NCBI GenBank assembly: GCA_049964715.1
Contig: JBMFXB010000002.1
Span: 12,386-76,385 of the forward strand
DNA: 64,000 nucleotides
Direction of reading: 5' to 3'
Source of the DNA: Candidatus Dormibacteria bacterium
GTDB lineage: Bacteria; Chloroflexota; Dormibacteria; Aeolococcales; Aeolococcaceae
Part shown: piece after piece, positions 5,125 to 60,968 of the stretch
Layout of the letters: each line of letters opens with the position of its first letter
Numbering within the stretch: position 1 is the stretch's first letter
Translations under genes and position numbers: made by a program
The notes under the pieces: model-generated
Told to the model about the DNA's origin: nothing
The model's input: the letters and a program-made list of their open reading frames with translations, nothing else
Databases searched by the model: none

Positions 5125-5176
5125 CATCGGTTTTACTGGTTAAACAATTCCTACTGAAGCCGGAATGCCTTGCGTG

Positions 5177-7148: not shown

Positions 7149-7235
7149 ATTTTCATGGTCATCATACTCTGGATTGTTTGTTCCTGCTGCTGTTTGGTAG
7201 TCACATCCTCAAGAAGAGTCAGACATATCTACAGG

Positions 7236-7267
7236 GAAGGAGGAAACCCCTTTGGGTTTCCTCCTTC
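7236..7267 (-). terminator. Perfect 14-bp stem hairpin immediately 3' of the Tyr/Trp-rich protein gene
   Basis: GAAGGAGGAAACCC-cttt-GGGTTTCCTCCTTC at 7236-7267, lying 29 nt after the stop at 7296. No clean U-tract on the - strand. Confidence 0.5.
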
Positions 7268-7295
7268 ATTTGAAACATTTATCTAGATCCATTAC

Positions 7296-9245: not shown

Positions 9246-9440
9246 GCAATTCCATTTAAACCATCGAGTCATCTGTACTCACCCCCACAACTAAAGGTGA
9301 ACGCCATTTCAATACCTTTCATTATCATTAACCACGTTCACAACACCATGGTGTATTTGTAACAGGATAATGACTGAAGGTTTCAATGCAGTACCTGATA
9401 CATATTCCAAACGCAGGGCAACCTTCCAACTGGAACCCAC

Positions 9441-10034
9441 TTAGCAATAGTCAATGGGGACTGCTGAGGTTGGACATACATGGCTCCTGAATGGTTCCAG
9501 TGCCTCTGCAGAAGTAGCCTGCACCGTTGCATGGTTCCATATGGGAATCCAGGGTAGTGTGACATTGGCTGTAACATCCACACCTACCACTCCGCCCCTC
9601 CAAATCCCAAAACACCCCCCATCACTTCCTGTTCCCCCATACCCATCGCTACAAACCGCTGGAATGTTGGTACATATGTTGCTACCTGCTGTAACTACGC
9701 ATTTTGACTGGGGTGAAATTGCTGAAACACAAGTTATAGTTGGTGATGGAAGAGTACTGAAAAGAGATGATTTCAAGGCTGCATCAAAGGCATTTATAGC
9801 CTGTGCATACCCGACATCGCCATTCGAACAAGAGTCATTCGCGTTGCGGGCAATTGTCAATGCTGACTCAGTCGTTGCCTGCTGCAGGAGGCTTTGCGCC
9901 TGGATATATGAATCAATTGCAATGGCACCCAAAAAAACTGTGAGCATCACTGGAAGAAGAACTGCAAATTCAACCATTGTTTGACCAACTGCATGCTTCC
10001 TTGGATGAATTCGAAAGTGATGGAGTCGTTTCAT
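9441..10034 (-). CDS. tadE: TadE-like pseudopilin (Flp pilus assembly)
   Basis: N-terminus ...HAVGQTMVEFAVLLPVMLTVFLGAI matches the TadE/TadG N-terminal motif (G/Q-x-x-VEFAL + hydrophobic helix). Confidence 0.75.
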   Translation of the reverse strand: MKRLHHFRIHPRKHAVGQTMVEFAVLLPVMLTVFLGAIAIDSYIQAQSLLQQATTESALTIARNANDSCSNGDVGYAQAINAFDAALKSSLFSTLPSPTITCVSAISPQSKCVVTAGSNICTNIPAVCSDGYGGTGSDGGCFGIWRGGVVGVDVTANVTLPWIPIWNHATVQATSAEALEPFRSHVCPTSAVPIDYC

Positions 10035-10684
10035 TGCTCAAACTCCTGGACCGTGTATGTATCTTGCGCATATACAGGAAGTTTGTTACCAAGTATCGGA
10101 GCTGGTGCAATGAGAGGTTTGTAACCGGCAATGGTGATAGTTAGCTCAACTGCGGATGTTGATGCTCCCCCATTCGTATTTGCTGTAGCACATATAAGCA
10201 AAACGTTGGATGTTGAGGAGGGTACAAGAGTATTAAGATACGACAGCATTTGCTTCTCTGTTGGAGGCGTTGTGACACTGTACCCCGATGCACTGCTTGG
10301 ACGCTCTGATGGCGGGCATGAGGCAAGTGGATCAGGAAGCTCGGAACTTGGCACGCTACCTGTACACGGTAAACCATATGTTCCACTAACTAGCGGTGTT
10401 GCACCAAGAAAGCTCTCCGAAACTGCTGCCTTGTAGGCAACCTGTCCAGCATTGCACTCAAGCCCAAGTGCATCCGTTGGCATGCCTACAACCTGTACCC
10501 CCTCCTGGGAAGCAAAATTGAGGCTGTTCAAGTCAAGTTGCCAGAGAAAAGCTACCACACCCCCAAAAATAATCACTATGAAGACAGGAAACACGAACGT
10601 AAATTCAACAAGCGATTGTGCTCGTGAGTTATGGCGATGGGAATGTCGCATTGCTGAAACAGCTCTTCCGTAATTGTTTTCCAT
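10031..10684 (-). CDS. TadE-like pseudopilin
   Basis: ...SRAQSLVEFTFVFPVFIVIIFGGVVAF is a TadE-type N-terminal motif. Start trimmed from the ORF start at 10783 to an internal Met; the exact start is uncertain. 4-nt overlap with the downstream tadE. Confidence 0.65.
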   Translation of the reverse strand: MENNYGRAVSAMRHSHRHNSRAQSLVEFTFVFPVFIVIIFGGVVAFLWQLDLNSLNFASQEGVQVVGMPTDALGLECNAGQVAYKAAVSESFLGATPLVSGTYGLPCTGSVPSSELPDPLASCPPSERPSSASGYSVTTPPTEKQMLSYLNTLVPSSTSNVLLICATANTNGGASTSAVELTITIAGYKPLIAPAPILGNKLPVYAQDTYTVQEFEQ

Positions 10685-10686
10685 GG

Positions 10687-11502
10687 TCAATTGCCCAAAC
10701 ATCCATACGCAGAATCCGTTGCCTGCATGAGAATATGCGATTCCCCTATAAATATGCCAAATGGCTGACTTGCCTGCATCCACACATTTACTGTTACCTG
10801 TCTAGCAAACTGCTGTGTAGCTGGACAGACATAAGGAGAACTTCCCGCCTCATCACCGTCCGCACCAGAAGCATCATCGGAAGTTCCGGTTGCTGAATCA
10901 TCACTATCTAGCATGTAACCTTTGCTCACAAGAACCTGAAACTCGATATTCGTCAGCGAAGAGCCTTGTTCATAATTGGAGCATTGTGTCAATGAATATG
11001 GGCTTCCCATACTTTCAGTCCCCTTACAAGGCTGACCAGAAGTGGGAGCTGCAGCTGCATCAATTGTGTACCCAGGGAACGCTTGCTGGAGCACATTGGT
11101 AACGGAACTGTCAGCAGAGTATGATGCGATTTGTTCCTCTTCGATGGTTTGAGCTCCATCTGGAGTTGTTGTTAGGATTCCTGGGGATGTCTCCATTCCC
11201 TGACTTATTGGGGGCAAGCCAGATGCATAGAGTGAAGTAGTAGACTGACCAGTTCCCGGATACGTACCGTACTGGCATTCATATTCATCATATGTGTACT
11301 GTGATGCCATGCATGCGTCTCCACTTGCAGCAACTGCAGCTACTACAGTTGCTGCATCAAGTCTGCTACGTGCATTCAGATAGATCTCACCCGACATTGT
11401 AAGACCCAGCAGGGCAATTATGACTGGCAACATGAGAGCGAAAAGTGGCATGACTTGTGCTCTGCTACCATGTCTCTTCGCAGGCATACAGTTACCTTTC
11501 AT
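10687..11502 (-). CDS. TadE/TadG-like pseudopilin (larger paralogue)
   Basis: ...GSRAQVMPLFALMLPVIIALLGLTM N-terminal motif. Start set at MKGNC, preceded by GAGGAA; the ORF extends to 11568. Confidence 0.6.
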   Translation of the reverse strand: MKGNCMPAKRHGSRAQVMPLFALMLPVIIALLGLTMSGEIYLNARSRLDAATVVAAVAASGDACMASQYTYDEYECQYGTYPGTGQSTTSLYASGLPPISQGMETSPGILTTTPDGAQTIEEEQIASYSADSSVTNVLQQAFPGYTIDAAAAPTSGQPCKGTESMGSPYSLTQCSNYEQGSSLTNIEFQVLVSKGYMLDSDDSATGTSDDASGADGDEAGSSPYVCPATQQFARQVTVNVWMQASQPFGIFIGESHILMQATDSAYGCLGN

Positions 11503-11675
11503 GTCGTTCCTCATCATGCAACGCAGTAATGAAAGGTGTCGATTATTCTTCACATCAGCTCTTCTCATCCCAATAGTCGACTACAGGTGAACTCCATCAT
11601 CATTACATGGATTTTCATTACCGATGATTGCAGGTCGGTTACAACTTTGACACATCGCTTCTCAATTTGCACTCT

Positions 11676-12542
11676 TCAAGAAGCATCTCCATCATGCTGC
11701 TTTATGTCTGTACTGTTTGGTGGAGCATATCCCTGAATGTACTGGACATTGGACGGCTCGATCACGGCAGTAGATCCTGCATATGAACCCGTCACAGAGA
11801 ACGTGATCGTTCCCAAATCACTTCCCGGAACATCAATTGACCACTGCACTATATCACCACTCGACCCCAGGTAAACATTTGCTGCGAGTTTTGAGCTGTG
11901 TGACATTGCAGTAACAACCACTTGGTCTACGAGCAATGACTCTTCACTATTGCTCTGCTGTAGTACTGATTGCAAATCAGTGGTTACCCTGTATGATTCA
12001 GCAGAACGGCCAGCGATGGTTGTGGGGCCTGTATCTTCAACTTTGACTATTCCATTGTCCACAATCTCTTCCGTGATAGCAGGATTCAGGAGAAGCAAGT
12101 CATCTGCAAATGAGCTGAGAGGCTTTGCAACTGGTGGTGCTGACTGGAGTACCAGTCCTTTCCATACCTGTGAAGATGTTCCACTTCCCACATATCCCAC
12201 ATATGCACTTCCCAACTGTTCCACAAGCGAAAAGGCTTTCGGTTGACTCGATGCAATGCCAGCATTCGTTGCAAAATTGTAGTGTCCAACCACTTCTTGA
12301 GCCATGGTGAATGGGTTTACTGCGGATTGACGATTCCATTTGCCGGTGAATGTATAACTCCCTGTTAGGAGCTTTGCATAGCCCACTGCAATTCGATTTA
12401 CATCCCCCATTTGGGCAGGGGACAGTTGTTGACCTCCAACACTTGACTGTACCCTATGAGTTGAGTTTCCAATTGCTGTTGTGCCACACGAAGTGGTTAT
12501 ACAGATTCCCAGAGCAAGGAGAATTGCAAATGAGCGATTCAC
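11676..12542 (-). CDS. Lipoprotein (lipobox ITTSC)
   Basis: MNRSFAILLALGICITTSC|GT is a signal peptide plus lipobox. No domain assigned. Confidence 0.55.
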   Translation of the reverse strand: MNRSFAILLALGICITTSCGTTAIGNSTHRVQSSVGGQQLSPAQMGDVNRIAVGYAKLLTGSYTFTGKWNRQSAVNPFTMAQEVVGHYNFATNAGIASSQPKAFSLVEQLGSAYVGYVGSGTSSQVWKGLVLQSAPPVAKPLSSFADDLLLLNPAITEEIVDNGIVKVEDTGPTTIAGRSAESYRVTTDLQSVLQQSNSEESLLVDQVVVTAMSHSSKLAANVYLGSSGDIVQWSIDVPGSDLGTITFSVTGSYAGSTAVIEPSNVQYIQGYAPPNSTDIKQHDGDAS

Positions 12543-12634
12543 CAGTCCAACTCCTTCTCATGTTCATGCAGATCCACCACATGTATAGCACTCTAGTAAT
12601 CGAACACATCGAAGGCAGCTGGACTGTCACACCT

Positions 12635-13237
12635 TTACAGTGAATTCAGTGGACTTGGAAGTGGGCCAGAAGCAAACATGAATGATGAATACACGGTAAT
12701 TGGTTGTATTGGACTGATGAAGTAGACAATATATTTCGTAGGTTGGCTTGGTGCGTTTGATGAAACATTTGAAACAGTGAAATTGCCCTGGATAATTACT
12801 ACCCAAACCTTATCTGGAAGATTTTTTTGGCCTGAAAGAAACTGGCTCAATTCACTTGTGGCAACTTCCTGTGGAGGAAGACACTGTATTTGTCCTTTCG
12901 CACTAATATTGGACTGTTGATTGAGAACCTCATGCACGAGTGACGTAGCTTCACTGGCACTCACTGGACCAGAGGGCTGTGTAAAAGGAGGAACAGTCTG
13001 TCCCGGGCTCAACGTTATTGGGGTGGGGGTTGGCCCATTGGGTTGGATCGTTGCAGCCCCACATGACGAACTGTACGAAGCGTTGACGAGGGGCCCAACA
13101 TGGGAACTCGGCTTGGGTATAGGAGCCGTAGGAGTAGGGCTTGGATGCTTGGTCGCTGAAGGGGCACATCCAACAAGGAGTGCCAAGCCCACAGCCACAG
13201 TAGATCCTGATATCCACTTTCTTAGTACAGTTCTCAT
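12635..13237 (-). CDS. Pro-rich lipoprotein (lipobox LLVGC)
   Basis: ...GSTVAVGLALLVGC|APSATKHPSPTPTAPIPKP. ORF extends to 13282; the internal Met MRTVLRKW was chosen as start. Confidence 0.5.
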   Translation of the reverse strand: MRTVLRKWISGSTVAVGLALLVGCAPSATKHPSPTPTAPIPKPSSHVGPLVNASYSSSCGAATIQPNGPTPTPITLSPGQTVPPFTQPSGPVSASEATSLVHEVLNQQSNISAKGQIQCLPPQEVATSELSQFLSGQKNLPDKVWVVIIQGNFTVSNVSSNAPSQPTKYIVYFISPIQPITVYSSFMFASGPLPSPLNSL

Positions 13238-13288
13238 GGTCACTGAATAACGATTTCCGTTGCTCATTAAGAATTTCTCCATCTCGGA

Positions 13289-14152
13289 CTAGTGAAACAG
13301 TGCCTGGAAACTTCCAGAATTCATACCCTGGTCAGGGCTGGGTGATGGTGATGTTCCAAACTTCACGTAGTTTGTATTGCTCAGGAGTACATATTCCAGA
13401 ATAGAACTCTGAGTAGAGTTGCGTGAATCCATGAGATACGACAAGAGTTCTGCCTCAGATTCAGGAACGCCTACGATGAGTTCCGTAGCAGCCCCTGCAG
13501 TTTGACCAACTGTGCCAACATTCAGGATCGTCACATTATGCGCCATGATCTCAACATTGCCTTGGCCATTGGCGTCTCCGAGAATATCTATCTGGTCACC
13601 TGGCTGAAGGAAGCCCCCTACACCTTGTGTAGCATTCATGGGTATAGCTATTGCAACGTACCCAGATGGCAGGGAGAATGCCTCTTCCCGGCAGCCTGCC
13701 TGGGTGGCAACGGTCGTGGAACTTGATGAACTCGGAGAACTCGAAGGTGAGATGGAAGTAATGAGCGTGGGCGAAGCCGTTGCCTGGGGCGTGCAGACAA
13801 CTGCGATTCCCGACGTCTTGGTTGGGCTTACAAGACTAGGTGTGATTACCTGATTGGGAACAATGCTGACTATTGCATACTGGCCAACTACTTTCGTCGG
13901 ATCAGTGAACGCACCAGCTGGAACTGCAGTGGTCGGCACCTGAGTTGCAACGACCTCTGACTGTGTTATTGCACTTCCATTGGGGATTTCAGTCGCGGCT
14001 TCAACAACAGTGACTGTCGGAACATTTGCACCACCACCACCGGCCTTCGTTAGCACGATGAGACCCACTGCTCCTGCACCTGCAACAATGAGACCAACGA
14101 CAATTGCGATGAGTTTGTTCGGGCGGCCACCTGGCCTCATATTCATTCCCAT
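13289..14152 (-). CDS. cpaB: Flp pilus assembly protein CpaB/RcpC-like (N-terminal TM + SAF domain)
   Basis: TM segment LIAIVVGLIVAGAGAVGLIVL followed by NGSAITQSEVVATQVPTTAVPAGAF, typical of CpaB. Ser-rich linker. Start among M26/M28/M30 of the ORF (which extends to 14227). Confidence 0.7.
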   Translation of the reverse strand: MGMNMRPGGRPNKLIAIVVGLIVAGAGAVGLIVLTKAGGGGANVPTVTVVEAATEIPNGSAITQSEVVATQVPTTAVPAGAFTDPTKVVGQYAIVSIVPNQVITPSLVSPTKTSGIAVVCTPQATASPTLITSISPSSSPSSSSSTTVATQAGCREEAFSLPSGYVAIAIPMNATQGVGGFLQPGDQIDILGDANGQGNVEIMAHNVTILNVGTVGQTAGAATELIVGVPESEAELLSYLMDSRNSTQSSILEYVLLSNTNYVKFGTSPSPSPDQGMNSGSFQALFH

Positions 14153-14255
14153 ATAGCTGATCCTACATCCTTTGTTTGCAGCATTGGCGGCATGTGTCGC
14201 ATGGGCATTGCATATGCGATTCGACACCTAGTGTATTGTAAATAGCAGTAATTGT

Positions 14256-17241: not shown

Positions 17242-17406
17242 TTATCCTGTCGCGTATTTCACTCCTTTCTCAATATTGGAATACACATTGTTGACCTGAT
17301 GACCAAGAAGAATCACTGTCACAAGTACTGCCAGTGCAATGAGTACGATTATGAATGCATATTCGACAATACCCTGACCTTTCTCCTCCTGACATCCCAG
17401 TCGCAT
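17242..17406 (-). CDS. flp: Flp/Fap family pilin (prepilin, 54 aa)
   Basis: MRLGCQEEKGQGIVEYAFIIVLIALAVLVTVILLG... carries the Flp motif G|xxxxEY followed by a hydrophobic helix. GGAGGT lies 3 nt upstream of the internal ATG; the ORF extends to 17457. Confidence 0.8.
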   Translation of the reverse strand: MRLGCQEEKGQGIVEYAFIIVLIALAVLVTVILLGHQVNNVYSNIEKGVKYATG

Positions 17407-17547
17407 CCTACCTCCATATAAAAGCAGGACTGGAAGAGATCGTAGCCACGTTGCCACTATAGGCTTCCTCCTTTATATCTGACGTTCTCGCACACCTGAT
17501 AATTCTGTGGGGAATTATAGCACCCTGTCAAATTTACATACTTTGCG

Positions 17548-18477
17548 TCATCCACCTGTCATAATCTTGACGATTGCAGGTCCGAGAAGCACAAGGAAAA
17601 CACAAGGAAAGATACAGAGGAGCATTGGCAGAAGCATGAGGACTGGTGCTCGATGTCCTGCCTCTTCTGCCCTCTGCTTCCGGATACGTCGAAGTTCTTC
17701 GGATTGGACACGAAGGACATTCGCAACACTCACACCTAGTGGCTCTGCCTGCACAACAGCACGAATAAAGTTGTCAAGCTCCTCTACCGGATTTCTCTCA
17801 GCCATTGCTGAGAGAGCTTCAAGACGTGGTCTTCCAAGTCGAATCTCATCTAGCGTTTTCTTGAACTCCCTCCCAAGAGGACTCTGCTCAGACTCTGCGA
17901 CGCGGGACAATGCCATGTCCATGCTGAGACCAGCCTCCATACTGATGGTAAGGAGATCCATGACTCCTGGCAGTGCCCGGGAAATGAGTTTCTGCCGCTT
18001 CTTGATCTTGCTCTTGAGGGAAGAGACTGGCAGACTCCTTCCAAAGAACACACCTCCTGCAACTGCTGCAAGAGTGATTGGAAGGCCAAAGTCGAAGTAA
18101 TTTCCCAGAAACAGTGCTGCGAGCACAAAGACGATTGGGAGCAGGATTTGCTGTCCAAGAAGCATCTGTGGTGATTTCCCCTCAACATCAGCCTGTACAA
18201 TGAGCCGCTGAAGCTTTTCAATCTGACCAGCCTTGGAACTCCGCATCATGATATTGCCTATGCGATTAAAGAGTGGAGTGATCACACGATCAGTAAAGGG
18301 AAGTGCCATCTCTTCCTCGCCAGGAAGTGCAATATTTGATCCACCCATTGCCTCATCGACACCGTAGAGTCGCTGCTCAAGTCGATCCTTGCTAGTCGAT
18401 GGAGAGGCTATTACCAACACAAGGACAAACACACCAACTACAACAGCAATGCCCTCAATGATCGTGATCGGTGTCAT
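17548..18477 (-). CDS. tadC: Flp pilus assembly inner-membrane platform protein TadC (T2SS-F domain)
   Basis: 309 aa with TM segments flanking a cytoplasmic T2SSF-like domain (LISRALPGVMDLLTISMEAGLSMDMALSRVAE..LGRPRLEAL). GGAGGTG lies 8 nt upstream of the ATG. Confidence 0.75.
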   Translation of the reverse strand: MTPITIIEGIAVVVGVFVLVLVIASPSTSKDRLEQRLYGVDEAMGGSNIALPGEEEMALPFTDRVITPLFNRIGNIMMRSSKAGQIEKLQRLIVQADVEGKSPQMLLGQQILLPIVFVLAALFLGNYFDFGLPITLAAVAGGVFFGRSLPVSSLKSKIKKRQKLISRALPGVMDLLTISMEAGLSMDMALSRVAESEQSPLGREFKKTLDEIRLGRPRLEALSAMAERNPVEELDNFIRAVVQAEPLGVSVANVLRVQSEELRRIRKQRAEEAGHRAPVLMLLPMLLCIFPCVFLVLLGPAIVKIMTGG

Positions 18478-18482
18478 TGTCT

Positions 18483-19469
18483 CTACACCTCCACATTCAC
18501 GATTTTTCTGATGATGGCATACCCGCCAGCAATCATGAAGAATGCAAAGCCGAGCATGATCTGACCTGGGAGTTTTGTCAGCATTGGATCAAAGTAACTT
18601 GGTGCAATCATGTAAAGGATGCCACTCAGTGCAAGGGGAAGCACTATGAGTACCCAACCAGATGCACGTGCCTGGCCAGTTATCGTCTTGATCTCACCTT
18701 TGATTCGTACACGTTCACGTATCGTGTACTCAATATTGTCGAGAATGACGGCCAGGTTACCCCCTACCTGCTGCTGTATCTGGATTGCAGTCATGAGAAG
18801 CTTCAGGTCCTCTGATTCACTTCTGTCGACCATATGGCCAAACGCTTCAATAAAGGGGACTCCCAACTGGGTTTCCCTCATGACACGTGCCATATCAGGA
18901 CCCATTGGTGGTGCTGCATTCTGGGAAACAAGATTCATTGCTTGTGCAAGGGTGTAACCGGCCTTCACACCATTGCTCAATGCAAGAACTGTCGGACCAA
19001 GCTGATCCTCAAACTTCTTTCGTCTTTTGTTGTACCGCATCTTCAAATAGATACGCGAGCCGAAAAAAACAACTGCAAACCCAATGATGAGCCCGATAAT
19101 GCTCTTAAAGCGCAACATGAGAAGGAGACCCAGCACTATACTCGCAGCTGAAACCATTGCTGTCCACTCAGTGGGATGAAGCTTGAGATCAGCCTTCTGA
19201 AGCTGCTCAACGAGCTTTGCACCCCGGGATGACTTCTCGAACCGTTTTCCCACACTCTGCTGCAATGAATCTCGAAAGTCAAATGAACTCTTCTTGGTAC
19301 CCTGAAGTGCAAGAGGGGTATCACCATACTCGTCCTCCCATTCACTTTCAGCCGATGTTGCAAGTGAAGGGTCTTCGACTGGAGTACTCTTGGCTCCAGT
19401 GAGCATGAACACACCACCAAACACTCCCAGAACAACGAGTGCACCAGCAATCAGAGAGACGAGGCTCAC
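18483..19469 (-). CDS. tadB: Flp pilus assembly platform protein TadB (T2SS-F domain)
   Basis: 328 aa with T2SSF domain (LALSNGVKAGYTLAQAMNLVSQ...ETQLGVPFIEAFGHMV) and N- and C-terminal TM helices. GTG start preceded by GGAAGGGTGAAG. Confidence 0.75.
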   Translation of the reverse strand: MSLVSLIAGALVVLGVFGGVFMLTGAKSTPVEDPSLATSAESEWEDEYGDTPLALQGTKKSSFDFRDSLQQSVGKRFEKSSRGAKLVEQLQKADLKLHPTEWTAMVSAASIVLGLLLMLRFKSIIGLIIGFAVVFFGSRIYLKMRYNKRRKKFEDQLGPTVLALSNGVKAGYTLAQAMNLVSQNAAPPMGPDMARVMRETQLGVPFIEAFGHMVDRSESEDLKLLMTAIQIQQQVGGNLAVILDNIEYTIRERVRIKGEIKTITGQARASGWVLIVLPLALSGILYMIAPSYFDPMLTKLPGQIMLGFAFFMIAGGYAIIRKIVNVEV

Positions 19470-19484
19470 GATACTTCACCCTTC

Positions 19485-20297
19485 CTACTGGACATAGTTA
19501 TTGAGATTAGATGGACCAACTGTTGCTGCACCTGTAAGTTGACCGTTCTGGTACAGCGAACCATTTGCAATGACAAAGCTCAGTATTGCTGATGGATCTG
19601 TAGCCTGCAGATACTCAAATGCTGCAGCCTGTCCTGGAGACATTTCCACAATGATCACTGACGGGGTAGTCACAACTGGAGCAGCAGCAGTGGTCGAGGC
19701 TGTACCAGTTTTTGCTGCAGGTACTGCAGCTGCTGCAGCAAGGGTTTCATCAAGACTTCCCACCTTGAGTACCTTGATATCCTGGAAACCAAATGAAACA
19801 GGTGTTCCCTTGCCTCCAGCTTGAGTGAGAATATTGATGTAGTCACCCGGCTGGATGTAATAGCCAAGTCCGAGTGTCTTGCTTGTGGAAATCGCAACAG
19901 CAACATTACCAGGATCTGGAAACACACTGTCCGCTGCAGAAGGTACACCTGTAGCATTCGAAGTCACAAATGTCGATTGAAGAATTGTTCCTTGGGCAAT
20001 CTGGATTGCAGAGAATTTTCCAACAACACTCGCAGCTGTTGAAAATACTGTGCCCTGGGGAAGGACAGACTGTGGCACCTTCTTGACAGCCACCATGCTT
20101 GCTGAGAGTGACGTTCCCTGCGGAATGCTTGTGGTCGCCACGACGACGCTCACAGTTGGTCCCTGCACGGAACCTGTGGACGTGGCAGCAGCTTTCGGAG
20201 CATGTCCTTGAGACAATGCAAGTGCAAATCCACCTGCTGCCACAACTGCGGCAATGATTGCAATGAGAATCCTTCTGCTCTGTCCACCTTGATTCAC
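19485..20297 (-). CDS. CpaB/RcpC-like protein (second paralogue)
   Basis: TM segment ILIAIIAAVVAAGGFALAL followed by a SAF-like region (SIPQGTSLSASMVAVKKVPQSVLPQGTV). GTG start with AAGGAG 6 nt upstream. Confidence 0.65.
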   Translation of the reverse strand: MNQGGQSRRILIAIIAAVVAAGGFALALSQGHAPKAAATSTGSVQGPTVSVVVATTSIPQGTSLSASMVAVKKVPQSVLPQGTVFSTAASVVGKFSAIQIAQGTILQSTFVTSNATGVPSAADSVFPDPGNVAVAISTSKTLGLGYYIQPGDYINILTQAGGKGTPVSFGFQDIKVLKVGSLDETLAAAAAVPAAKTGTASTTAAAPVVTTPSVIIVEMSPGQAAAFEYLQATDPSAILSFVIANGSLYQNGQLTGAATVGPSNLNNYVQ

Positions 20298-53402: not shown

Positions 53403-53795
53403 CTACACACGACGCCGCTTTGGCGGCCTGCACCCGTTATGTGGAATGGGTGTCATATCGGTAATTGCTGTTACATCAAGTCCTGAAGACTGCAGGCTCC
53501 GGATTGCTGCCTCACGTCCTGCTCCTGGCCCCTTTACGAACACTTCGATACTTCTAAGGCCATGTTCCATGGCACGCTTTGCTGCATTCTCAGCTGCTAC
53601 CTGTGCTGCAAACGGTGTTCCTTTCCGTGAACCCTTGAAGCCTTGACCGCCTGCTGAACTCCAAGCAAGAACGGCACCCTGAGGGTCAGTAAGACTGACA
53701 ATCGTATTGTTGAACGTTGCGAGAATGTGCGCTTGTCCAATGACAACATTCTTCTTCTCGCGACGACGAGTACGTACGACCTTCTTCTTTGCCAT
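53403..53795 (-). CDS. rpsK: 30S ribosomal protein S11
   Basis: [14 protein letters not shown]-type start and S11 signature. Confidence 0.95.
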
Positions 53796-53809
53796 GTCCT
53801 TCCCTTACC

Positions 53810-54187
53810 CTACTTCTTCTTCTTTGCACTGACTGTTCGACGTGGTCCACGGCGAGTTCTGGCATTCGTCCTGGTTCGTTGACCACGAACAGGAAGCCCT
53901 CGACGATGTCGGATCCCACGATATGAACCAATGTCCATCAGCCGCTTGATATTCATGGCGACCTGTCGACGAAGATCTCCTTCAACACGACCCTCAAGCT
54001 CCTTTGCGATGATGTCACGAAGCTGCGCAACCTGCTGATCTGTAAGATCCCCAGTGCGAGTATCTTCATCCAGACGAGCCCGCTCAAGAATATGCTTGGC
54101 AGTCGTCGGTCCAATGCCGTAAATGTATGTCAACGAAACGACAATGTGCTTGTCGCGCGGAATATCAACACCAGCGATACGTGCCAC
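53810..54187 (-). CDS. rpsM: 30S ribosomal protein S13
   Basis: (M)[28 protein letters not shown] start. Confidence 0.95.
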
Positions 54188-54199
54188 TCGTCCTTCCTC

Positions 54200-54313
54200 T
54201 TAACCTTGCCGCTGCTTGTGCTTTGGATTCGTGCAGATGACCCGGACAACTCCGTGGCGACGTATGACCTTGCAACGTTCACACATCTGCTTAACCGATG
54301 CTCGAACTTTCAT
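54200..54313 (-). CDS. rpmJ: 50S ribosomal protein L36
   Basis: Not in the supplied ORF track (under 60 aa). Reverse-strand translation gives [37 protein letters not shown], 37 aa with the C-x2-C-x12-C-x4-H zinc motif. Confidence 0.85.
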
Positions 54314-54562
54314 GATAGTGCATTCCTCATGGTGCTCACGATTCACAATACCAAATTCACACATAGCCACGGATTGTATCTCTACCGTAGCCTTACATCC
54401 TCACACCCCCTGGCGGATGCAGTGTTACTTATTATATGGAATTCCTCAGTCAAAGAGCAAATGTGCACATGCTGTCCTTCCAGCAATTAAAGAAGAAAAG
54501 GAGGAAACATCATGGTCTCCCCCTTTCAATACGTGAAGCAATTATGTACTACATATAGAGAA

Positions 54563-55645
54563 CTACACAGTCTTCTTCCGGTCCTTTAGCCGAGTGAGCA
54601 GCAAGCCCGTCAGGATCATACCGAGAGCGAGTAAAAGTCCAAATCCCAGTCCTGTGGCCGGTACTGAAGCTCCAAGTACTTCACCTGAGGCTGGATCCCC
54701 TGGAGTTGGTTGGCCACCAGTTGAGACACCAAGCACTCCACCTGTCGGCGTATGCGGTGGTGTTGATGTTGGAAGTGGAGTGGATGTTGGTATAGGTGTT
54801 GATGTAGGCGTAGTCGTTGGTGTTGATTTTGGCGTGGTAGTTGGTGTGGATGATGGCGTAGTCGTTGGTGTTGATTTTGGCGTGGTCGTTGGTGTGGATG
54901 ATGGCGTAGTCGTTGGTGTTGGTGTGGATGCAGGCGTAGGCTTAAGCGTTGGTGCAGGTGTAGGAGAATGCGTTAGTGCCACTGGGGGGCAGTCCACCCA
55001 GAAGGTCTTGTGCTTCTGCGGATCCATGCTGAACTGCAGCTTGAAATGCAATCCCTGTGTAGCTTGGGGTACATCACCATTTGAGAGGGCATGAGCCACA
55101 AGTTGGGCAGTATTGATCTGGGCAACAACATTCGTTCCAGCATGTACTGTCCACAGTGCTTCTGAGGGTGCTGCCTTGGTTCCAGGCCATGCCTGGTCCT
55201 GGCTGTATCCAGGTGCTGAAGCTGCATCTGAAGCAAAATGTGACGGGCCTGTCAAGGTCTTTACATCACCTTTGCCAGATCCTGTACCGTTCCACCCATC
55301 AATGGTGAAATACCCTGATGAATCAGCAAGATCACTTGCAAAAAGATAAATGACTGGAGGACAGCCAAGTTTCGGATCGTGCTCATGACCGGGATCAGTA
55401 AATCCTGATGCACTATCGAGCCACACATCCCCATGGTTGTTGTTTCCACCACTTGCATTGCCGGTTTTCGAGTTCCCGCCAAGGCTGTTCGGGCTACTTG
55501 CAAATACGACTCCGGACAGCCCAAGTCCAAGTACTGCACTAAGCACAACGCCGAGAACACTCTGCATCAACAGACTTCCTCTTCTCGACAGACGTCTCAT
55601 GTGAAATGTCGTGGTACTGTTTACAGTACGCATACTCCCCCCCAA
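54563..55645 (-). CDS. Cell-surface protein with Thr/Pro-rich tandem repeats and LPXTG-like (VPATG) C-terminal sorting signal
   Basis: N-terminal signal/TM (LLMQSVLGVVLSAVLGLGLSGVVFA), a globular domain, then repeats (TPTTTPSS/TPTTTPKS) x5. The C-terminus SVPATG-LGFGLLLALGMILTGLLLT-RLKDRKK has the motif-hydrophobic-basic tail arrangement of sortase substrates. Confidence 0.65.
   Translation of the reverse strand: MGGSMRTVNSTTTFHMRRLSRRGSLLMQSVLGVVLSAVLGLGLSGVVFASSPNSLGGNSKTGNASGGNNNHGDVWLDSASGFTDPGHEHDPKLGCPPVIYLFASDLADSSGYFTIDGWNGTGSGKGDVKTLTGPSHFASDAASAPGYSQDQAWPGTKAAPSEALWTVHAGTNVVAQINTAQLVAHALSNGDVPQATQGLHFKLQFSMDPQKHKTFWVDCPPVALTHSPTPAPTLKPTPASTPTPTTTPSSTPTTTPKSTPTTTPSSTPTTTPKSTPTTTPTSTPIPTSTPLPTSTPPHTPTGGVLGVSTGGQPTPGDPASGEVLGASVPATGLGFGLLLALGMILTGLLLTRLKDRKKTV
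54790..54960. repeat. Imperfect tandem nucleotide repeats (about 48-nt unit) encoding the Thr/Pro-rich linker
   Basis: Units such as gtagtcgttggtgttgattttggcgtggt(a/c)gttggtgtggatgatggc recur back to back within the surface-protein gene. Confidence 0.6.
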
Positions 55646-55880
55646 TCATCTTGGATGATATCTTCCTTACCCAATCGATGTGTATTTGAATTCTAACTGA
55701 TTTGGTCTGCTTTACGCAACAATTTCGTCACATGACAGATTGTGTACAATGACTTCCCTTATGACGTCATGTAACAGCAGTGTCGCACCTTGTGCGATAG
55801 ACATATCTCCATATGCTGTCAGGTACAACAATGAAAGGTGACGATTCGGCGCGAGGATGTACATCTCAAGGGAATGAAAC
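55646..55880. promoter_or_regulatory. Divergent intergenic region between the surface-protein gene and the TadG-like gene, containing two palindromes
   Basis: TGACGTCA perfect 8-bp palindrome at 55762-55769 and TCGCAC-ctt-GTGCGA inverted repeat at 55783-55797. The region is AT-rich relative to its surroundings. Confidence 0.35.
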
Positions 55881-57167
55881 ATGGATCGTATGCCAGTTCA
55901 CGAACGTGGGCATGCATTGCTAAAGCTTGCCATTATCAATCACGGGCCGACTCGAAGGCGAGCACTTCAGCGTGGTCAGTCCATGGTCGTTTTTGCAATG
56001 ACATCGCTCATTCTCATTGGTGTTGTAGGTCTCACAGTGAATACGGGCTGGGGAACAATCCAGCGTGAAACAGCTCAGAGTACTGCTGATGCTGTTGCAC
56101 TTGGCATTGCATATGGCTTCAACAATGGCGACAACCTCAATGTTGCAACGCATGACTACGCAGGTCCGATCATGCAGGCAAATGGCCTTCCCATGTCAGA
56201 CCTCACAACGAAGATGATTACCACAGCTACTTCAGTCGAGATCCAGGCAACTGTCTTGGTAGGTGTTACATCTTTCTTCTCGGCTGCATTTGGCAACAAG
56301 ACCTTCACAAGTGGAGCAACTGCTGAGGCACCTCTCACGATTCAGTGCGGTCTCTGCATTGATGGCACAATGACGGACAACCTGTCTGCTACAGGAAATC
56401 CAAGCATTGATGTATCAGGTACAAACATTTATACAGCAGGGAACCTTTCTGTCGGAGGCAGTGCCCAGGTATCAGCAAACAACGTCTTTGTCAGTGGTTC
56501 AACGACAGTATCCGGTACCGTGATTCCATCCCCGCCGATCACGGTTCCTCCGTTTCCCAATCCTGTTGCAGAGCCACCTCCACCCACCTGTTCCACCCTT
56601 GCTGCTGAGGGAGTCAGCGACTGTCCTTCCGTCCAATCAGCTGGCAACCCCATGTTTCCAGGCGTGTACAACAACATCACCCTCAATGGAGGTGCAGGTG
56701 ATGTGACAATGGAACCTGGCATCTACGTCATTACAGGAAATCTGAAAGTCAGCTCAACGACGGACCTCACGGGAAGTGGTGTCATGCTGTACTTCACCTG
56801 CAGTTCATTCCCGAATCCATGTCCAGCAAACTCCACTGGCGGGAGTCTCACGATTGAGGGCTCCGGCAACATCAATCTCACACCGCCGACCTCTGGACCG
56901 TATCAGGGGCTCCTTATCTATCAGGATCCAAACAACAGTTCCCCCCTATACCTTACAGGTGGAGGCGATCTCAGTCTCACGGGAACAATCTACGCTCCTT
57001 CCGCAACCCTGCAACTCCAGGGCAATTCTGGAGCCACGACGTCACTCAACTCAATCATTGATGTCGGTGGAGTAACAGCAAAAGGGGATGGAACCATTAA
57101 TGTGAGCTACAACGAAAATGCAAACTATGTGAATGGCATTACGAAGAGTGAGTGGCTCTATCAATGA
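55881..57167 (+). CDS. TadG-like pseudopilin / pilus-associated protein
   Basis: N-terminus ...LQRGQSMVVFAMTSLILIGVVGLTV is the TadE/G-type motif. Large Thr/Ser/Gly-rich domain. C-terminal region IYAPSATLQLQGNSG resembles the conserved TadG YAP..GN motif. AAGGGA lies upstream of the ATG. Confidence 0.6.
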   Translation: MDRMPVHERGHALLKLAIINHGPTRRRALQRGQSMVVFAMTSLILIGVVGLTVNTGWGTIQRETAQSTADAVALGIAYGFNNGDNLNVATHDYAGPIMQANGLPMSDLTTKMITTATSVEIQATVLVGVTSFFSAAFGNKTFTSGATAEAPLTIQCGLCIDGTMTDNLSATGNPSIDVSGTNIYTAGNLSVGGSAQVSANNVFVSGSTTVSGTVIPSPPITVPPFPNPVAEPPPPTCSTLAAEGVSDCPSVQSAGNPMFPGVYNNITLNGGAGDVTMEPGIYVITGNLKVSSTTDLTGSGVMLYFTCSSFPNPCPANSTGGSLTIEGSGNINLTPPTSGPYQGLLIYQDPNNSSPLYLTGGGDLSLTGTIYAPSATLQLQGNSGATTSLNSIIDVGGVTAKGDGTINVSYNENANYVNGITKSEWLYQ

Positions 57168-57655
57168 GGACATCCCTCATTCCTCGTCACAGAGCTCAGG
57201 AATCTGGACAGGCAGTAGTAGAGTTTGCACTCTTTCTTCCCATCATCCTGCTTCTTCTCTTTGGTGCAGTAAATGTGTCCATTCTCTTCAACAACATCAC
57301 CTCTCAGGACGGCGCAGTCCGTGATTCAGCTCGATATGCCAGCATCAATCCAGCATCCTTCAGCACCCACACTCCCCCTGATGCCAACTCCATCCAGGGC
57401 ATTGCCTACGCTGAAAACACAAGTCTTACTCCAGATGCAATCACGATCAACTACTACTATCCCGATGGGGGTCTCTGTGGCACGTATACAGCTGGAGATG
57501 GTTTCGTTGGAGATCAAACAGATTGCACACAACCCGGTTACTTCGTACAGGTTGTCGGAAAAGTCATCTATACTCCAGCCATCATCAATGTTTTCAGTGG
57601 TTTTGGTTCTGGTGGGCTCCCCATCTCCACTTCATACGAGTTTGTCATCCAATGA
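57152..57655 (+). CDS. TadE-like pseudopilin
   Basis: ...ESGQAVVEFALFLPIILLLLFGAV is a textbook TadE N-terminus. Overlaps the upstream gene. Confidence 0.7.
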   Translation: MALSMRTSLIPRHRAQESGQAVVEFALFLPIILLLLFGAVNVSILFNNITSQDGAVRDSARYASINPASFSTHTPPDANSIQGIAYAENTSLTPDAITINYYYPDGGLCGTYTAGDGFVGDQTDCTQPGYFVQVVGKVIYTPAIINVFSGFGSGGLPISTSYEFVIQ

Positions 57656-58203
57656 AACAGCATCGCAAGCAACGACGAATGACACGTGCACAGGCAGCAG
57701 TCGAACTCGCCCTCATAGCACCCATTCTCCTTGCAACCATCTTCATCCTCCTTGACACTGCACTTTTCTATACGACGGAGCTTTCTGCTGCTAATGCTGT
57801 GCAGTATGGAGCCCGATACGCAGCAGTCCATGCTATTGAGTGGTCGAACGCCAATCCTCCTGCGTCCGACACTATCCAATATGCTGTGACCTCAAATGAA
57901 GGTCTTGCTACCCTCATCAACCAGGATGCTACAGCCCCGGATGGTAGCCCGAACAGGACATACCTTGAGGTCACATATTATGACACGAGTGGCGATACGA
58001 TGACTGAGTGTGGTTCATATACTGTTGATAACGGCTTCCAGGCAGCTTCCGGGTATACAGAATTCAGCTGTGTTCAAGCTGGAAACATGGTGAGGATCAC
58101 TATCCACTGCGTGTACACTCCCCTCACGCCCGTACTTGGTCAATTCCTTCCCAATGGTATAGTCATCAGTGAATCTGCAACTGCACTCATTGAGCATATC
58201 TGA
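57652..58203 (+). CDS. TadE-like pseudopilin
   Basis: MKQHRKQRRMTRAQAAVELALIAPILLATIFILLD. Start set at the ATGA overlap with the previous gene; the ORF begins at 57523. Confidence 0.65.
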   Translation: MKQHRKQRRMTRAQAAVELALIAPILLATIFILLDTALFYTTELSAANAVQYGARYAAVHAIEWSNANPPASDTIQYAVTSNEGLATLINQDATAPDGSPNRTYLEVTYYDTSGDTMTECGSYTVDNGFQAASGYTEFSCVQAGNMVRITIHCVYTPLTPVLGQFLPNGIVISESATALIEHI

Positions 58204-58241
58204 GGAGTGTGACTTGCGTTCCTTGACCCGCAACTACGGCC

Positions 58242-59045
58242 TCAACCAACTGCACATTTGCGCTCTTGGAGAATGACTCGCTCAGAAGGGCGCACTGTGA
58301 GTACATGGGGACCATCTTCCGTTATTGCAACTGTATGCTCTGCATAGGCGGACCAGCTTCCATCCTGCGTGACAACTGTCCAGTTGTCCTCCAACGTGCG
58401 AACAGCATCACGGCCCTTGTTAACCATGGGCTCAATCGCAATGACATAGCCTGGCTTTAGTTCATTGCCTGTACCTGGCTTTCCATAATTGGGCACCTGT
58501 GGTGGCTCATGCATATCCCGCCCGATACCATGGCCAACATAATGTTTCACCACCGCGTAGCCATGAGACTCGACATATGTCTGAACCGTATGTCCAATAT
58601 CGCCAATGTGAGCTCCTGGTCGTGCTACTTCTATCGCCCGATACAGCGCTTCCTGTGTCACATCAATGAGCTTTTGCATCCCTGGCTCAACATTGCCACA
58701 CGGCACAGTGAGTCCACTATCCGCCCACCATCCATCGAGAATGAGACCACAATCGAGCGAAACAATATCTCCATCCTGCACCACCCGCTCTCCAGGAATG
58801 CCATGTACTACTTCATTGTTAACAGAGATGCATATGGACTTTGGGAAGCCATCATAACCAATGAACCCTGGAATACAACCATGATCCCTGATGAAGGTCT
58901 CTGCTTCACGGTCGAGAGTATTGAGTGTTACCCCTGGCGCAACATGTGTGGCAACATGCTCAAGGCATGCACCAAGAATCTCTCCTGAACGAGCCATTCG
59001 TGCGATTTCATCAGGCTTCTTCAGTCGAAAGCTCTCGCCCCGCAT
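58242..59045 (-). CDS. map: Methionine aminopeptidase, type I
   Basis: Pita-bread fold metal ligands (DIVSLDCG, HGIGRDMHE, EPM). Start trimmed to MRGESFRLKKPDEIARM; the ORF extends to 59081. Confidence 0.9.
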   Translation of the reverse strand: MRGESFRLKKPDEIARMARSGEILGACLEHVATHVAPGVTLNTLDREAETFIRDHGCIPGFIGYDGFPKSICISVNNEVVHGIPGERVVQDGDIVSLDCGLILDGWWADSGLTVPCGNVEPGMQKLIDVTQEALYRAIEVARPGAHIGDIGHTVQTYVESHGYAVVKHYVGHGIGRDMHEPPQVPNYGKPGTGNELKPGYVIAIEPMVNKGRDAVRTLEDNWTVVTQDGSWSAYAEHTVAITEDGPHVLTVRPSERVILQERKCAVG

Positions 59046-59634
59046 GATGCTCCTCCTCAAGATTTCCCTTCTCCAACACATGAATGAGTCTCGTCGTCAC
59101 AGTATCAACATCCGGCGTGCCATCGACATCGACCATCGGTGCCCCCTGTGCACGGTAATACTCGATGGTGGGAATTGTCTTTTCCTCATACTCCTTCAGA
59201 CGCTGTTTAAGCACTTCAACAGAATCATCCGATCGACCTTCAACTGTCGCACGGTGTTGAATACGCTCCAAAATGACATCCGTCGGAACAGAAAGATGAA
59301 CAATGAGATCTATCGTCATTCCGAGTTCCCTGAGAAGATCAGCCAGGCCCTCTGCCTGTGGCTTTGTGCGTGGATACCCATCAAGGAGGACACCGTTGAC
59401 ACCTGTCGTTTCCAGAAGGACACGACGAATCATGGCGAGCATGTACGAATCTGGAACGAGTTCTCCACGATTCATGAGATCCTGGACTTTCTTCCCAAGT
59501 TCAGTCTCTTCAGCAATCTCCTTCCGAAGCAATTCACCTGTGCTGACATGTCTGAGATGAAAATGGGCTGCAAGTTGTGCTGACTGTGTCCCCTTACCAC
59601 TTCCTGGAGGACCACAGATGATGTAGTGCTTCAT
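59011..59634 (-). CDS. adk: Adenylate kinase
   Basis: P-loop GPPGSGKGTQ. LID region with Ser/Thr rather than a Cys4 zinc site. Confidence 0.9.
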   Translation of the reverse strand: MKHYIICGPPGSGKGTQSAQLAAHFHLRHVSTGELLRKEIAEETELGKKVQDLMNRGELVPDSYMLAMIRRVLLETTGVNGVLLDGYPRTKPQAEGLADLLRELGMTIDLIVHLSVPTDVILERIQHRATVEGRSDDSVEVLKQRLKEYEEKTIPTIEYYRAQGAPMVDVDGTPDVDTVTTRLIHVLEKGNLEEEHHAGRELSTEEA

Positions 59635-59648
59635 GGTGGAAGCGGCTC

Positions 59649-60968
59649 CTACCGTATAAAACCTTGATAATCACGCATTTGTAACTGTGCTTCAATCTGA
59701 CGCATTGTGTCAAGGGCAACCCATACCACAATAAGGATTGACGTTCCACCCAGGTACAGGGAAGTTGTTGAGACTCCCGTCATGAGACTCGTGAGAAGGG
59801 GAAGAACAACAGTTATTGAAGCCAAGAACAGCCCCCCTACGAACACAACACGATTCCGTACCTGTGCAAGGTACCGCGAGGTAGGTGGTCCTGGCCGAAT
59901 TCCCGGAACATACATGGCGCTTCTCTTGAGCTGATCCGACATATCGTCCGCATTGAAGATGACAGTTGCAGCATAGAAATACGTGAATGCAATGACAAGA
60001 ACAAAGTAAAAGACGTTATAGATAACCTGGGTCACAATCGGACCACCATTCGGGCTCCAGTTGGCTACAAACCATTTCCCAACCCCACCAATCCAGCCTG
60101 GCGCATTCTGAATAAAGGATCCAAGTGTTGCTGGGAAAAGCATGAATGACACTGCAAAGATAATGGGGATTACTCCACCTGCAGTGACTGGGATGGGAAG
60201 ATTCGTCCGGTTCGCTCGCTGTGCTGTACCGGAGCGTGGATTCGTCACACGCGTCATTGACTGTACAGGAATGCGACGCTGGCCCTGCTGCATGAGAATA
60301 CTCAATGAAATGACAACGAGTGCAATGACACCCATGCCAAATATCTGGATGATATGTCCTCCACCAAGTGAGCCGTAACTTGTAACTGCGAACGGAACAC
60401 GGCTGACAATACCTGCGAAGATGATAAGCGAGATTCCCTGCCCAATACCGTATTCAGTAATGAGCTCTCCCAGCCACATCGTGATGAGTGTTCCTGCAAG
60501 GAGGATAAGCATGATTGTCAGGATTGTCGTTGCAGGGGTTGTCGAAGACAGTACTTGACTGTTCTCGAACAGAACAATGACACCATAGGACTGCAGGAGG
60601 GACAGCGGTACTGTGAGCCACCTTGCATATCGATTGATCTTGCGGGCTCCCTGCTCACCTTCCAGTGCAAGTTCGCGAAGTCGCGGGATCGATTGCTGCA
60701 TGAGCTGAAGCATGATCGTCGCGTTGATGTATGGGTTCAGTCCAAGCGACACAATTGAGAATTGACTGAGTCCACCCCCACTGAAGATGTTCAAGAGCCC
60801 TAGAAAGGTATTCCCTGAAAAGAGTGACTGCAAGGCAGTAGGATTTGCTCCCGGGATTGTGATGGCCGCGAGAGCTCGAAATGCAAGAAGCATTCCCACC
60901 ATGAACAGTAGTTTCTTCCGGAGCTCAGGAAGTGCGAACGCACGCTTGAGCGCCTCGAGCATGCTCAC
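59649..60968 (-). CDS. secY: Protein translocase subunit SecY
   Basis: 439 aa, 10-TM protein in the canonical position between rplO and adk. Confidence 0.9.
   Translation of the reverse strand: MSMLEALKRAFALPELRKKLLFMVGMLLAFRALAAITIPGANPTALQSLFSGNTFLGLLNIFSGGGLSQFSIVSLGLNPYINATIMLQLMQQSIPRLRELALEGEQGARKINRYARWLTVPLSLLQSYGVIVLFENSQVLSSTTPATTILTIMLILLAGTLITMWLGELITEYGIGQGISLIIFAGIVSRVPFAVTSYGSLGGGHIIQIFGMGVIALVVISLSILMQQGQRRIPVQSMTRVTNPRSGTAQRANRTNLPIPVTAGGVIPIIFAVSFMLFPATLGSFIQNAPGWIGGVGKWFVANWSPNGGPIVTQVIYNVFYFVLVIAFTYFYAATVIFNADDMSDQLKRSAMYVPGIRPGPPTSRYLAQVRNRVVFVGGLFLASITVVLPLLTSLMTGVSTTSLYLGGTSILIVVWVALDTMRQIEAQLQMRDYQGFIR

Follow-up and report, generated by a model that had tools for sequence, protein, structure and literature searches.

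A four-gene block with a Tad minor-pilin trio and a probable sortase-type surface protein at the boundary of the spc and alpha ribosomal operons in Dormibacteria

Work on Myxococcus xanthus has described four dispersed kilLMN clusters whose TadE/F/G-like products form alternative heterotrimeric “Tip” complexes (PMC12075869). The KilLMN Tip complexes prime and cap one Tad pilus, with the large TadG-type subunit exposing a variable module, and the same priming and capping role has been proposed for TadEFG generally (PMC12075869). For the ribosomal gene cluster, a reconstruction yielded 163 alteration events, and small gene insertions between operons were found to be the usual way in which this cluster changes and the first step of its break-up (PMC8046335). 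Both subjects bear on a locus in the metagenome-assembled Candidatus Dormibacteria bacterium, which belongs to a small group of uncultured soil bacteria in the Chloroflexota and which we examined in a stretch of 64,000 nucleotides (assembly GCA_049964715.1, contig JBMFXB010000002.1, positions 12,386 to 76,385), hereafter the window. The locus is a block of four genes lying between map and rpmJ.

The genes of the window’s minus strand follow the order rplO, secY, adk, map, a gap, rpmJ, rpsM, rpsK, rpsD, rpoA, rplQ, and truA. The gap falls at the boundary of the spc operon (…secY-adk-map) and the alpha operon (rpmJ-rpsM-rpsK-rpsD-rpoA-rplQ), and it is filled by 3.8 kb containing a surface protein gene and, divergent from it, a trio of pilin-like genes, as found by a listing of open reading frames (ORFs) and a Pfam scan of the window. 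We propose, with a probability of about 0.65, that the block is a clade-specific, self-contained module that brings an extra Tad tip, or minor-pilin, set and a sortase-type surface protein to the spc–alpha boundary. As to its place, the block is an ordinary insertion specific to its lineage, relatives having other genes at this boundary. The features of the locus are as follows.

54200–54313, minus strand: rpmJ (ORF listing and Pfam)
54314–54462, minus strand: rpmJ promoter and 5′ leader, host sequence just outside the block
54451–54467, no strand: left arm of a boundary inverted repeat, CAAAGAGCAAATGTGCA, overlapping the −35 region of the rpmJ promoter (repeat search)
54496–54527, minus strand: intrinsic terminator with a 13-bp stem and a T-rich tail, directly 3′ of the surface protein gene (terminator scan)
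54563–55633, minus strand: surface protein gene, 356 residues from an ATG that follows the ribosome-binding site GGGGGGAG
55634–55880, no strand: divergent intergenic region with two palindromes and better-conserved blocks
55881–57167, plus strand: TadG-like gene (tadG), 428 residues, a large minor pilin with PF13400 and DUF7305 (PF23981)
57164–57655, or from a GTG at 57152, plus strand: TadE-like gene 1 (tadE1), 163 residues, PF07811
57652–58203, plus strand: TadE-like gene 2 (tadE2), 183 residues, PF07811
58242–59045/59081, minus strand: map (ORF listing and Pfam)
58251–58268, no strand: right arm of the boundary inverted repeat, within the final map codons (QERKCA)
59011–59634, minus strand: adk
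59649–60968, minus strand: secY

The three plus-strand genes overlap by ATGA start/stop motifs, read from the sequence at the tadG/tadE1 and tadE1/tadE2 junctions, and therefore form one translationally coupled operon. The last of them, tadE2, converges on map across a 38-bp gap. The block holds no pilin, platform, ATPase, or peptidase gene.

All three pilin-like products exceed their Pfam thresholds. The TadG-like protein matches PF13400 (Tad) with 24.6 bits, the cut-off being 22.3, and its residues 263–386 match DUF7305 with 32 bits (cut-off 27). TadE-like 1 and TadE-like 2 match PF07811 with 40.9 bits (E = 2.3e-10) and 32.7 bits (E = 8.1e-8), respectively, for a cut-off of 22.9. The N-termini, with an arrow at the predicted processing site, are RG↓QSMVVFAMTSLILIGVVGL for TadG, starting RG↓QSMVVFAM; SG↓QAVVEFALFLPIILLLLFG for TadE1, starting SG↓QAVVEFAL; and RA↓QAAVELALIAPILLATIFIL for TadE2, starting RA↓QAAVELAL. 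They have in common the class-III signal form [G/A]↓Q..V[E/V][F/L] and resemble the N-terminus of the window’s Flp pilin, KG↓QGIVEYAF. When the prepilin-peptidase motif is defined as Gly at −1 and Glu at +5 followed by a hydrophobic helix, TadE1 matches it in full. The N-terminal motifs of all three proteins are kept in a diverged ortholog, that of assembly L002 (GCA_027451645.1, described below). The C-terminal part of TadG, which matches DUF7305, is globular and probably β-helical; no relative of TadG with a solved structure was found.

NCBI MGC8460447.1, named [quoted passage not shown], has exactly the sequence of the TadG-like protein. Among 5.8 billion proteins its close relatives form just two clusters, at 94% and 77% identity, the next best match having 35%. 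The homologs carry TadG or TadE/TadG names from JGI and NCBI, and those at 31–35% identity belong to TadE-TadG pairs in or beside complete tad loci that include CpaB, CpaF, TadB, TadC, a CpaE-like protein, and an A24 prepilin peptidase. Since the homologs are found in such company, the pilin genes of the block derive from ordinary Tad minor-pilin genes.

The surface protein is composed of a signal peptide, a β-sandwich domain of ~170 residues, a Pro/Thr-rich linker, and a C-terminus made of VPATG, a hydrophobic segment, and a basic tail. The N-terminus, MRTVNS…GVVFA↓SS, has the form of a signal peptide. The linker is encoded by 24-nt repeats at 54741–54962, and the repeat number differs between orthologs. 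The C-terminus reads SVPATG-LGFGLLLALGMILTGLLLT-RLKDRKKTV, with a hydrophobic segment of ~22 residues, and this tripartite signal is kept in three orthologs. Thus, each element of a sortase substrate (signal peptide, pentapeptide, hydrophobic segment, and basic tail) is found, and the protein is probably sortase-anchored at VPATG. The Pro/Thr-rich linker, the length of the hydrophobic segment, and the Lys/Arg tail are also those of known LPXTG substrates; the differences are that the first residue of the pentapeptide is Val or Thr rather than Leu and that the passenger domain belongs to no Pfam family.

The globular domain (54968–55498, minus strand) has 49 homologs (P0109–P0157), and every one with a taxon name comes from Dormibacteria. 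No Pfam domain falls on the globular region of any of the 49. Their alignment displays the invariant or near-invariant motifs GPGHExDPH…C, HFKLQ, and PQKHKTFW..C. A structure model from the single sequence was poor (predicted local distance difference test score, 46), and the model based on the alignment was good. The domain represents a new, Dormibacteria-specific family of secreted β-sandwich domains without a Pfam entry, the motifs of which include invariant His, Asp, and Cys residues. The C-termini of the family fall into classes. There are 14 members with xPxTG and five with LPxAG, each followed by a membrane segment and a basic tail, and two with LAQTG; the pentapeptide variants include TPSTG, LPNTG, LPxAG, and LAQTG. 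Scoring for PxTG or PxAG plus membrane segment and basic tail gave 19 of the 49, and LPRSG and the two LAQTG cases were added by eye. The xPxTG, LPxAG, and LAQTG classes match the architecture of a sortase signal. A further 14 of the 49 have a very basic tail of 40–60 residues with F[T/A]G at the C-terminus, which may be an undescribed sorting or anchoring signal, and the rest are truncated or different.

The layout and content just described agree in most respects with the first-pass annotation, which was made from the letters of the window. It had placed the four genes between map and rpmJ, and had reported that pilin, platform, and ATPase genes are absent from the block, as they are. The trio it had read as one TadG-like and two TadE-like pseudopilins is supported by the Pfam scores and by the class-III signal motifs, and the N-terminal match to TadE/TadG profiles, the failure of which it had named as a ground for refutation, was obtained with both PF13400 and PF07811. 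Its divergent LPXTG-like surface protein does carry a sortase-type C-terminal signal, though the pentapeptide is VPATG. It had also called the block a third dispersed piece of Tad machinery, and two other pieces are present in the window, as follows.

17242–20297: flp (~17242–17400), tadC, tadB, and cpaB
13289–14227: a further cpaB
10687–11568, minus strand: TadG-like gene of a second trio
10031–10783, minus strand: first TadE gene of the second trio
9441–10034, minus strand: second TadE gene of the second trio

The flp-tadC-tadB-cpaB cluster is without the TadA/CpaF ATPase gene that usually lies between cpaB and tadB. The pieces at 17242–20297 and 9441–14227 bear out the count of three, and the organism has its Tad system in an unusually fragmented form. 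The similarity between the block trio and the second trio is weak, confined to the N-termini, and at E ~1e-5; a recent duplication of the second trio was rejected as the source of the block trio on these grounds. The second trio is followed, within the minus-strand region 5177–11568, by a gene for a secreted protein of 658 residues that is extremely rich in Tyr, Trp, Asn, and Thr (7296–9272, minus strand), then by genes for a 464-residue protein with a C-terminal membrane anchor (5754–7148) and for a lipoprotein-like protein of 194 residues. None of the three products has a Pfam match.

A model for the action of the module can be outlined. Assuming that the genome contains a complete Tad machine, the three minor pilins would be cut by the same TadV/CpaA-type prepilin peptidase as Flp. 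The N-terminal helices of TadG, TadE1, and TadE2 would then bundle into a heterotrimer that primes Flp polymerisation. The heterotrimer would end up at the pilus tip, where the variable globular domain of TadG would be exposed and would give the pilus its function. The surface protein would be exported by Sec, its Pro/Thr-rich linker would span the wall, and a sortase would attach it at VPATG. The module has a divergent promoter region and a terminator of its own and stops upstream of the rpmJ promoter, so the intact promoter and the terminator would leave transcription of the downstream ribosomal genes undisturbed. Because a second, distantly related trio is present at 9.4–11.6 kb, the two trios are probably interchangeable tip sets for one dispersed Tad machine, by analogy with Myxococcus. 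A functional tie between the surface protein and the pilus would be based only on their joint inheritance and on the partly conserved intergenic region that they share.

The likeness to kilLMN lies in the presence of three adjacent genes whose pilin-like products, one large and two small, begin with a hydrophobic helix, in the scattering of paralogous trios away from the core (here, two trios and the flp-tadC-tadB-cpaB core within 64 kb), and in a variable C-terminal module on the large TadG-type subunit. The differences are as follows. There is no detectable sequence kinship beyond the Pfam Tad/TadE N-terminal domains, and the heterotrimer is here a predicted one. The host is a monoderm-type Chloroflexota relative that is not a known predator. 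Neither the ribosomal-operon location nor a wall-anchored partner has been described for Myxococcus. With the canonical tadE-tadF-tadG genes of Aggregatibacter, Caulobacter, and Pseudomonas, the block shares the Pfam TadE/Tad domains, a putative prepilin-peptidase-type motif, and the presumed role in priming Flp. In contrast to the canonical loci, where these genes stand at the end of the operon beside tadA, tadB, tadC, and tadD, the trio of the block is detached from the core, has the order G-E-E, and has no TadD or secretin context. Like the insertions described for the ribosomal cluster (PMC8046335), the block consists of a few genes exactly at an operon boundary, with the downstream operon keeping its own promoter; that study dealt with Gammaproteobacteria and Bacilli, whereas the present site is the map–rpmJ junction in Dormibacteria, with several independent cargos.

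The block is found in the same order and orientation in four other assemblies of the same genus-level clade, namely L001 (a Logan assembly), L002 (the same contig as L007), and L093 and L094 (ENA contigs). In all five assemblies the surface protein gene and the trio are inherited together, with the shared intergenic region conserved. The SecY of L002 is 96% identical to that of the window. L006 (MAS3.bin112) is as close to the window as L002 is, with SecY 97% and Map 91% identical, and its map and rpmJ are 350 bp apart with neither the block nor infA between them. When one genome of each GTDB species was searched with Map, 32 Dormibacteria loci were obtained, and all the more distant Dormibacteria among them are without the block. 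About fifteen loci have the classical order map-infA-rpmJ, and nine further metagenome-assembled genomes (MAGs) have map-rpmJ with a gap of ~170–230 bp and no infA. Several other loci have unrelated cargo directly after map, as follows.

L031: 4.6 kb with genes for an Rrf2 regulator, an NMT1-type binding protein, an ABC (ATP-binding cassette) ATPase, a permease, and TauE
L019: Rrf2 and TauE
L022: Rrf2, LysR, and ABC genes
L030 and L024: a pseudokinase-like protein
L024: also an IstB/IS21 gene

Therefore, the slot between map and rpmJ has been occupied repeatedly in Dormibacteria. Across L019, L022, L024, and L030–L033, the cargo also includes a large membrane protein and an IstB/IS21 ATPase that is fused to an MMPL fragment or lies next to it; the ABC transporter that accompanies Rrf2 and TauE is of the sulfonate/nitrate type.

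The first-pass annotation had noted that the insert sits in one of the most conserved gene orders in bacteria. The block and its location stand, and the implied surprise is smaller, given that the junction is variable within the class and is an operon boundary. The annotation was also right that infA is missing, as tblastn with the InfA of E. coli and of B. subtilis gives no match in the 64-kb window; a remnant or a relocated infA was looked for in the window and in L001 and not found. As L006 and other MAGs lack both infA and an insert, the absence of infA from the junction is not tied to the block. In all, the essential gene infA is missing from an insertion-free junction in about ten MAGs (L006, L008–L011, L013, L016, L017, L020, and L021).

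The edges of the block are sharp. Homology between the window and L006 runs from rpmJ through ~150 bp of upstream region, ends at 54462, and resumes only at ~58278, inside the 3′ part of map; between these edges, L006 carries unrelated filler of 240 bp. The region upstream of rpmJ, 54314–54462, is ~88% identical in L006 and L002 despite saturated synonymous sites. It contains, as read from the sequence, a −10 TATAAT at 54437–54432 on the minus strand and candidate −35 hexamers at 54456–54462. Homology stops at the candidate −35 hexamers, so the block ends right at the edge of the rpmJ promoter. The upstream region is probably a clade-specific promoter and leader: the leader matched no Rfam family, and twelve Dormibacteria sequences gave no consensus RNA structure for it. 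Over 53700–58600 the Rfam scan returned a sub-threshold match to Alpha_RBS near rpsM and nothing else. At the place of the intrinsic terminator, L002 has another sequence, a GGGAGG/CCTCCC stem followed by TTTTTT. No significant hairpin is present in the 38-bp gap between tadE2 and map (z = −0.64).

A deviation in GC or codon usage over 54563–58203, for which the first-pass annotation had suggested looking, is not seen. The GC content of the block is 0.49–0.52, both GC and GC at third codon positions (GC3) equal those of the neighbouring genes, and profiles of GC, GC3, and skew deviate only in a skew due to the Pro/Thr repeat. A foreign origin was rejected for this host-like composition, and by these sequence measures the block does not appear to be recently foreign. 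A mobile element or genomic island was likewise rejected as a description. No transposase or integrase gene is present in or beside the block, none of its four products has such a Pfam domain, a repeat search found no flanking direct repeats, and short inverted repeats at the boundaries are all that was detected. Between the window and L002, the ratio of nonsynonymous to synonymous divergence (dN/dS) of the block genes is 0.06–0.12; the genes are under purifying selection, as fits functional genes. Their dS is as saturated as that of the flanks, which fits vertical inheritance since the window and L002 separated.

At close range, the window and L001 are ~98.6% identical at the nucleotide level in the flanks, and their synonymous divergence rises from a background of ~0.04 to 0.18 in tadG. 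The excess is concentrated in the globular domain at 56084–57083, where divergence is 4–5 times background and the ratio of nonsynonymous to synonymous polymorphism (pN/pS) is 0.18. Import of recombinant alleles is common among exposed surface structures. The pattern suggests that the globular domain of TadG is a diverged allele imported by recombination. In the same comparison, the domain of the surface protein has a pN/pS of ~0.95, with few substitutions.

Several observations weigh against the proposed module. With E-values up to 10 admitted, no NCBIfam cell-wall-anchor model matches either the 59-residue tail or the whole surface protein, a tblastn search with the SrtA of S. aureus finds no sortase in the window or in any of the retrieved loci, and the homologs of the surface protein have no tad neighbours in three other Dormibacteria loci. 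No homolog of a CpaF/TadA ATPase, a prepilin peptidase, or CpaE/TadZ is present in the 64-kb window. Among the minor pilins, TadE2 has Ala rather than Gly at −1, and TadG is missing Glu at +5. NCBIfam TadE subfamilies of the Rv3654c and Rv3655c type give 20.1 bits against a cut-off of 50.95 and 13.3 against 40, and by these scores the TadE proteins of the block lie outside those actinobacterial subfamilies. Finally, with respect to gain or loss of the block, the window/L001, L002, and L006 form a near-trichotomy, with nucleotide identities of 82–84% and quartet-informative sites of 39/36/33.

The last point bears directly on the history of the block, which may be ancestral to the genus-level clade and deleted in the lineage of L006 rather than recently inserted in that of the window. 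L002 and L006 are slightly closer to each other (84.5% nucleotide identity) than either is to the window (~82%), and yet L002 has the block; the equal dS saturation of block genes and flanks fits vertical co-descent, and the site in L006 is occupied by 240 bp of unrelated filler. The near-equal site counts favour no branching order, however, and ancestral presence would have to accommodate the lack of any detectable remnant of a block gene in that filler and of the block itself in all more distant Dormibacteria. We regard ancestry with deletion as a serious contender, somewhat short of even odds. The comparison of gene order that the first-pass annotation had recommended to date the insertion thus confines the block to one clade, and does not separate gain from ancestral presence. 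A different doubt concerns function: the trio may serve a Tad/Flp-type filament for DNA uptake (competence) or another non-adhesive filament, with the surface protein as an unrelated passenger. In Micrococcus luteus, a monoderm, Flp pili are reported to mediate natural transformation (PMC4322843). The Tad loci inspected showed no secretin gene, in keeping with a machine of the monoderm type, and the absence of tad linkage among the homologs of the surface protein elsewhere would suit a passenger. Nothing in the block suggests DNA binding, however, and the TadG domain, being large, strain-variable, and exchanged by recombination, fits an exposed module for recognition or adhesion; the co-inheritance of the surface protein gene and the trio, with their shared conserved intergenic region, in five assemblies also speaks against a passenger. 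We therefore hold a DNA-uptake or other non-adhesive role to be rather unlikely.

The palindromes of the intergenic region raise the question of regulation. The first-pass annotation had reported a perfect palindrome, ATGACGTCAT, and an inverted repeat, TCGCAC-n3-GTGCGA, in the divergent promoter region, and both exist, at 55761–55770 and 55783–55797. It had taken them to suggest dedicated regulation, and in the fuller form of this idea the TGACGTCA palindrome and TCGCAC-n3-GTGCGA would be operators of a dedicated regulator coordinating the block with the flp core. Their position in the divergent promoter region would suit operators, as would the rarity of TCGCAC-n3-GTGCGA, which occurs once in the window against an expectation of 0.17, and the retention in L002 of a 5-bp version, TCGCA-n5-TGCGA. 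The other palindrome, ATGACGTCAT, is found in exact form once and with up to one mismatch twice, below the 3.1 expected, and neither element is enriched over shuffles. In L002 the counterparts are ATGACATCCT, in which the 10-bp palindrome is broken, and TCGCACGTTATGCGA, in which the other repeat has lost one arm base. Other parts of the region are better conserved, three blocks, TTGAATTCTAAC, CGTCACATGAC, and GTGACGATTCGGCGCG, being identical in the alignment of the window, L001, and L002; the region has no Rfam match. Upstream of flp, cpaB, and the second trio, where recurrence had been thought worth a search, neither the palindromes nor the conserved blocks recur within the window, and motifs common to the block and the other Tad pieces were rejected as a candidate. 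The elements being single in the window, degraded in L002, and not enriched, dedicated regulation is not supported, and a role as operators is improbable. Even less probable, in our judgment, is a cassette between inverted repeats, invertible or mobile, which on being flipped or excised would switch expression of its surface genes in relation to that of the ribosomal operons, where transcription is strong. The left arm aligns with the reverse complement of the 3′ end of map to a degree reached by 2 of 2000 shuffles in the window and 1 of 2000 in L001 (p ~0.001), and the RNAduplex energy of the arms, −26.6 kcal/mol, is reached by 1 of 500. In L002 the arms (1316–1345 and 5143–5185) are complementary over a longer stretch and in another register (−42.2 kcal/mol, z = −4.9). 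Inverted complementarity of the block ends occurs only in block-carrying genomes, nothing significant being found in the insert-free L006 or in 27 other Dormibacteria junctions, and the cargo consists of surface-structure genes, which are typical of phase-variable loci. On the other side, the block has one orientation in all five assemblies, including L093 and L094; no invertase, integrase, or transposase is in or beside it; and inversion, as read from the sequence, would swap the last codons of map for a 22-codon extension. The arms are short and imperfect, their registers differ between the two lineages, and the left arm is partly promoter sequence that is present in L006 too. A functional role for the complementarity, whether a cassette moved by a recombinase encoded elsewhere or pairing of the arms in a read-through RNA, seems to us very doubtful. 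Under such pairing, the pilus-tip set and the wall protein would be expressed in inverse relation to the transcription of the ribosomal operons; the tad operon and map converge, and no terminator separates them. The arms are possibly the footprint of a rearrangement or a coincidence.

No part of these results overturns current understanding; both a detached tip set and an inter-operon insertion are of known kinds. With the tip-set module as the preferred reading, Dormibacteria, a poorly known and uncultured lineage, would count among the bacteria with several detached sets of TadE/TadG minor pilins. Even in the “universal” ribosomal cluster, the spc–alpha boundary is a soft spot, one that has been filled several times with unrelated genes within this class. 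A Dormibacteria-specific family of surface proteins with alternative anchoring tails is flagged for annotation. Taken as a tip set, the trio would support a recent proposal in which exchangeable tip complexes serve to customise Tad pili.

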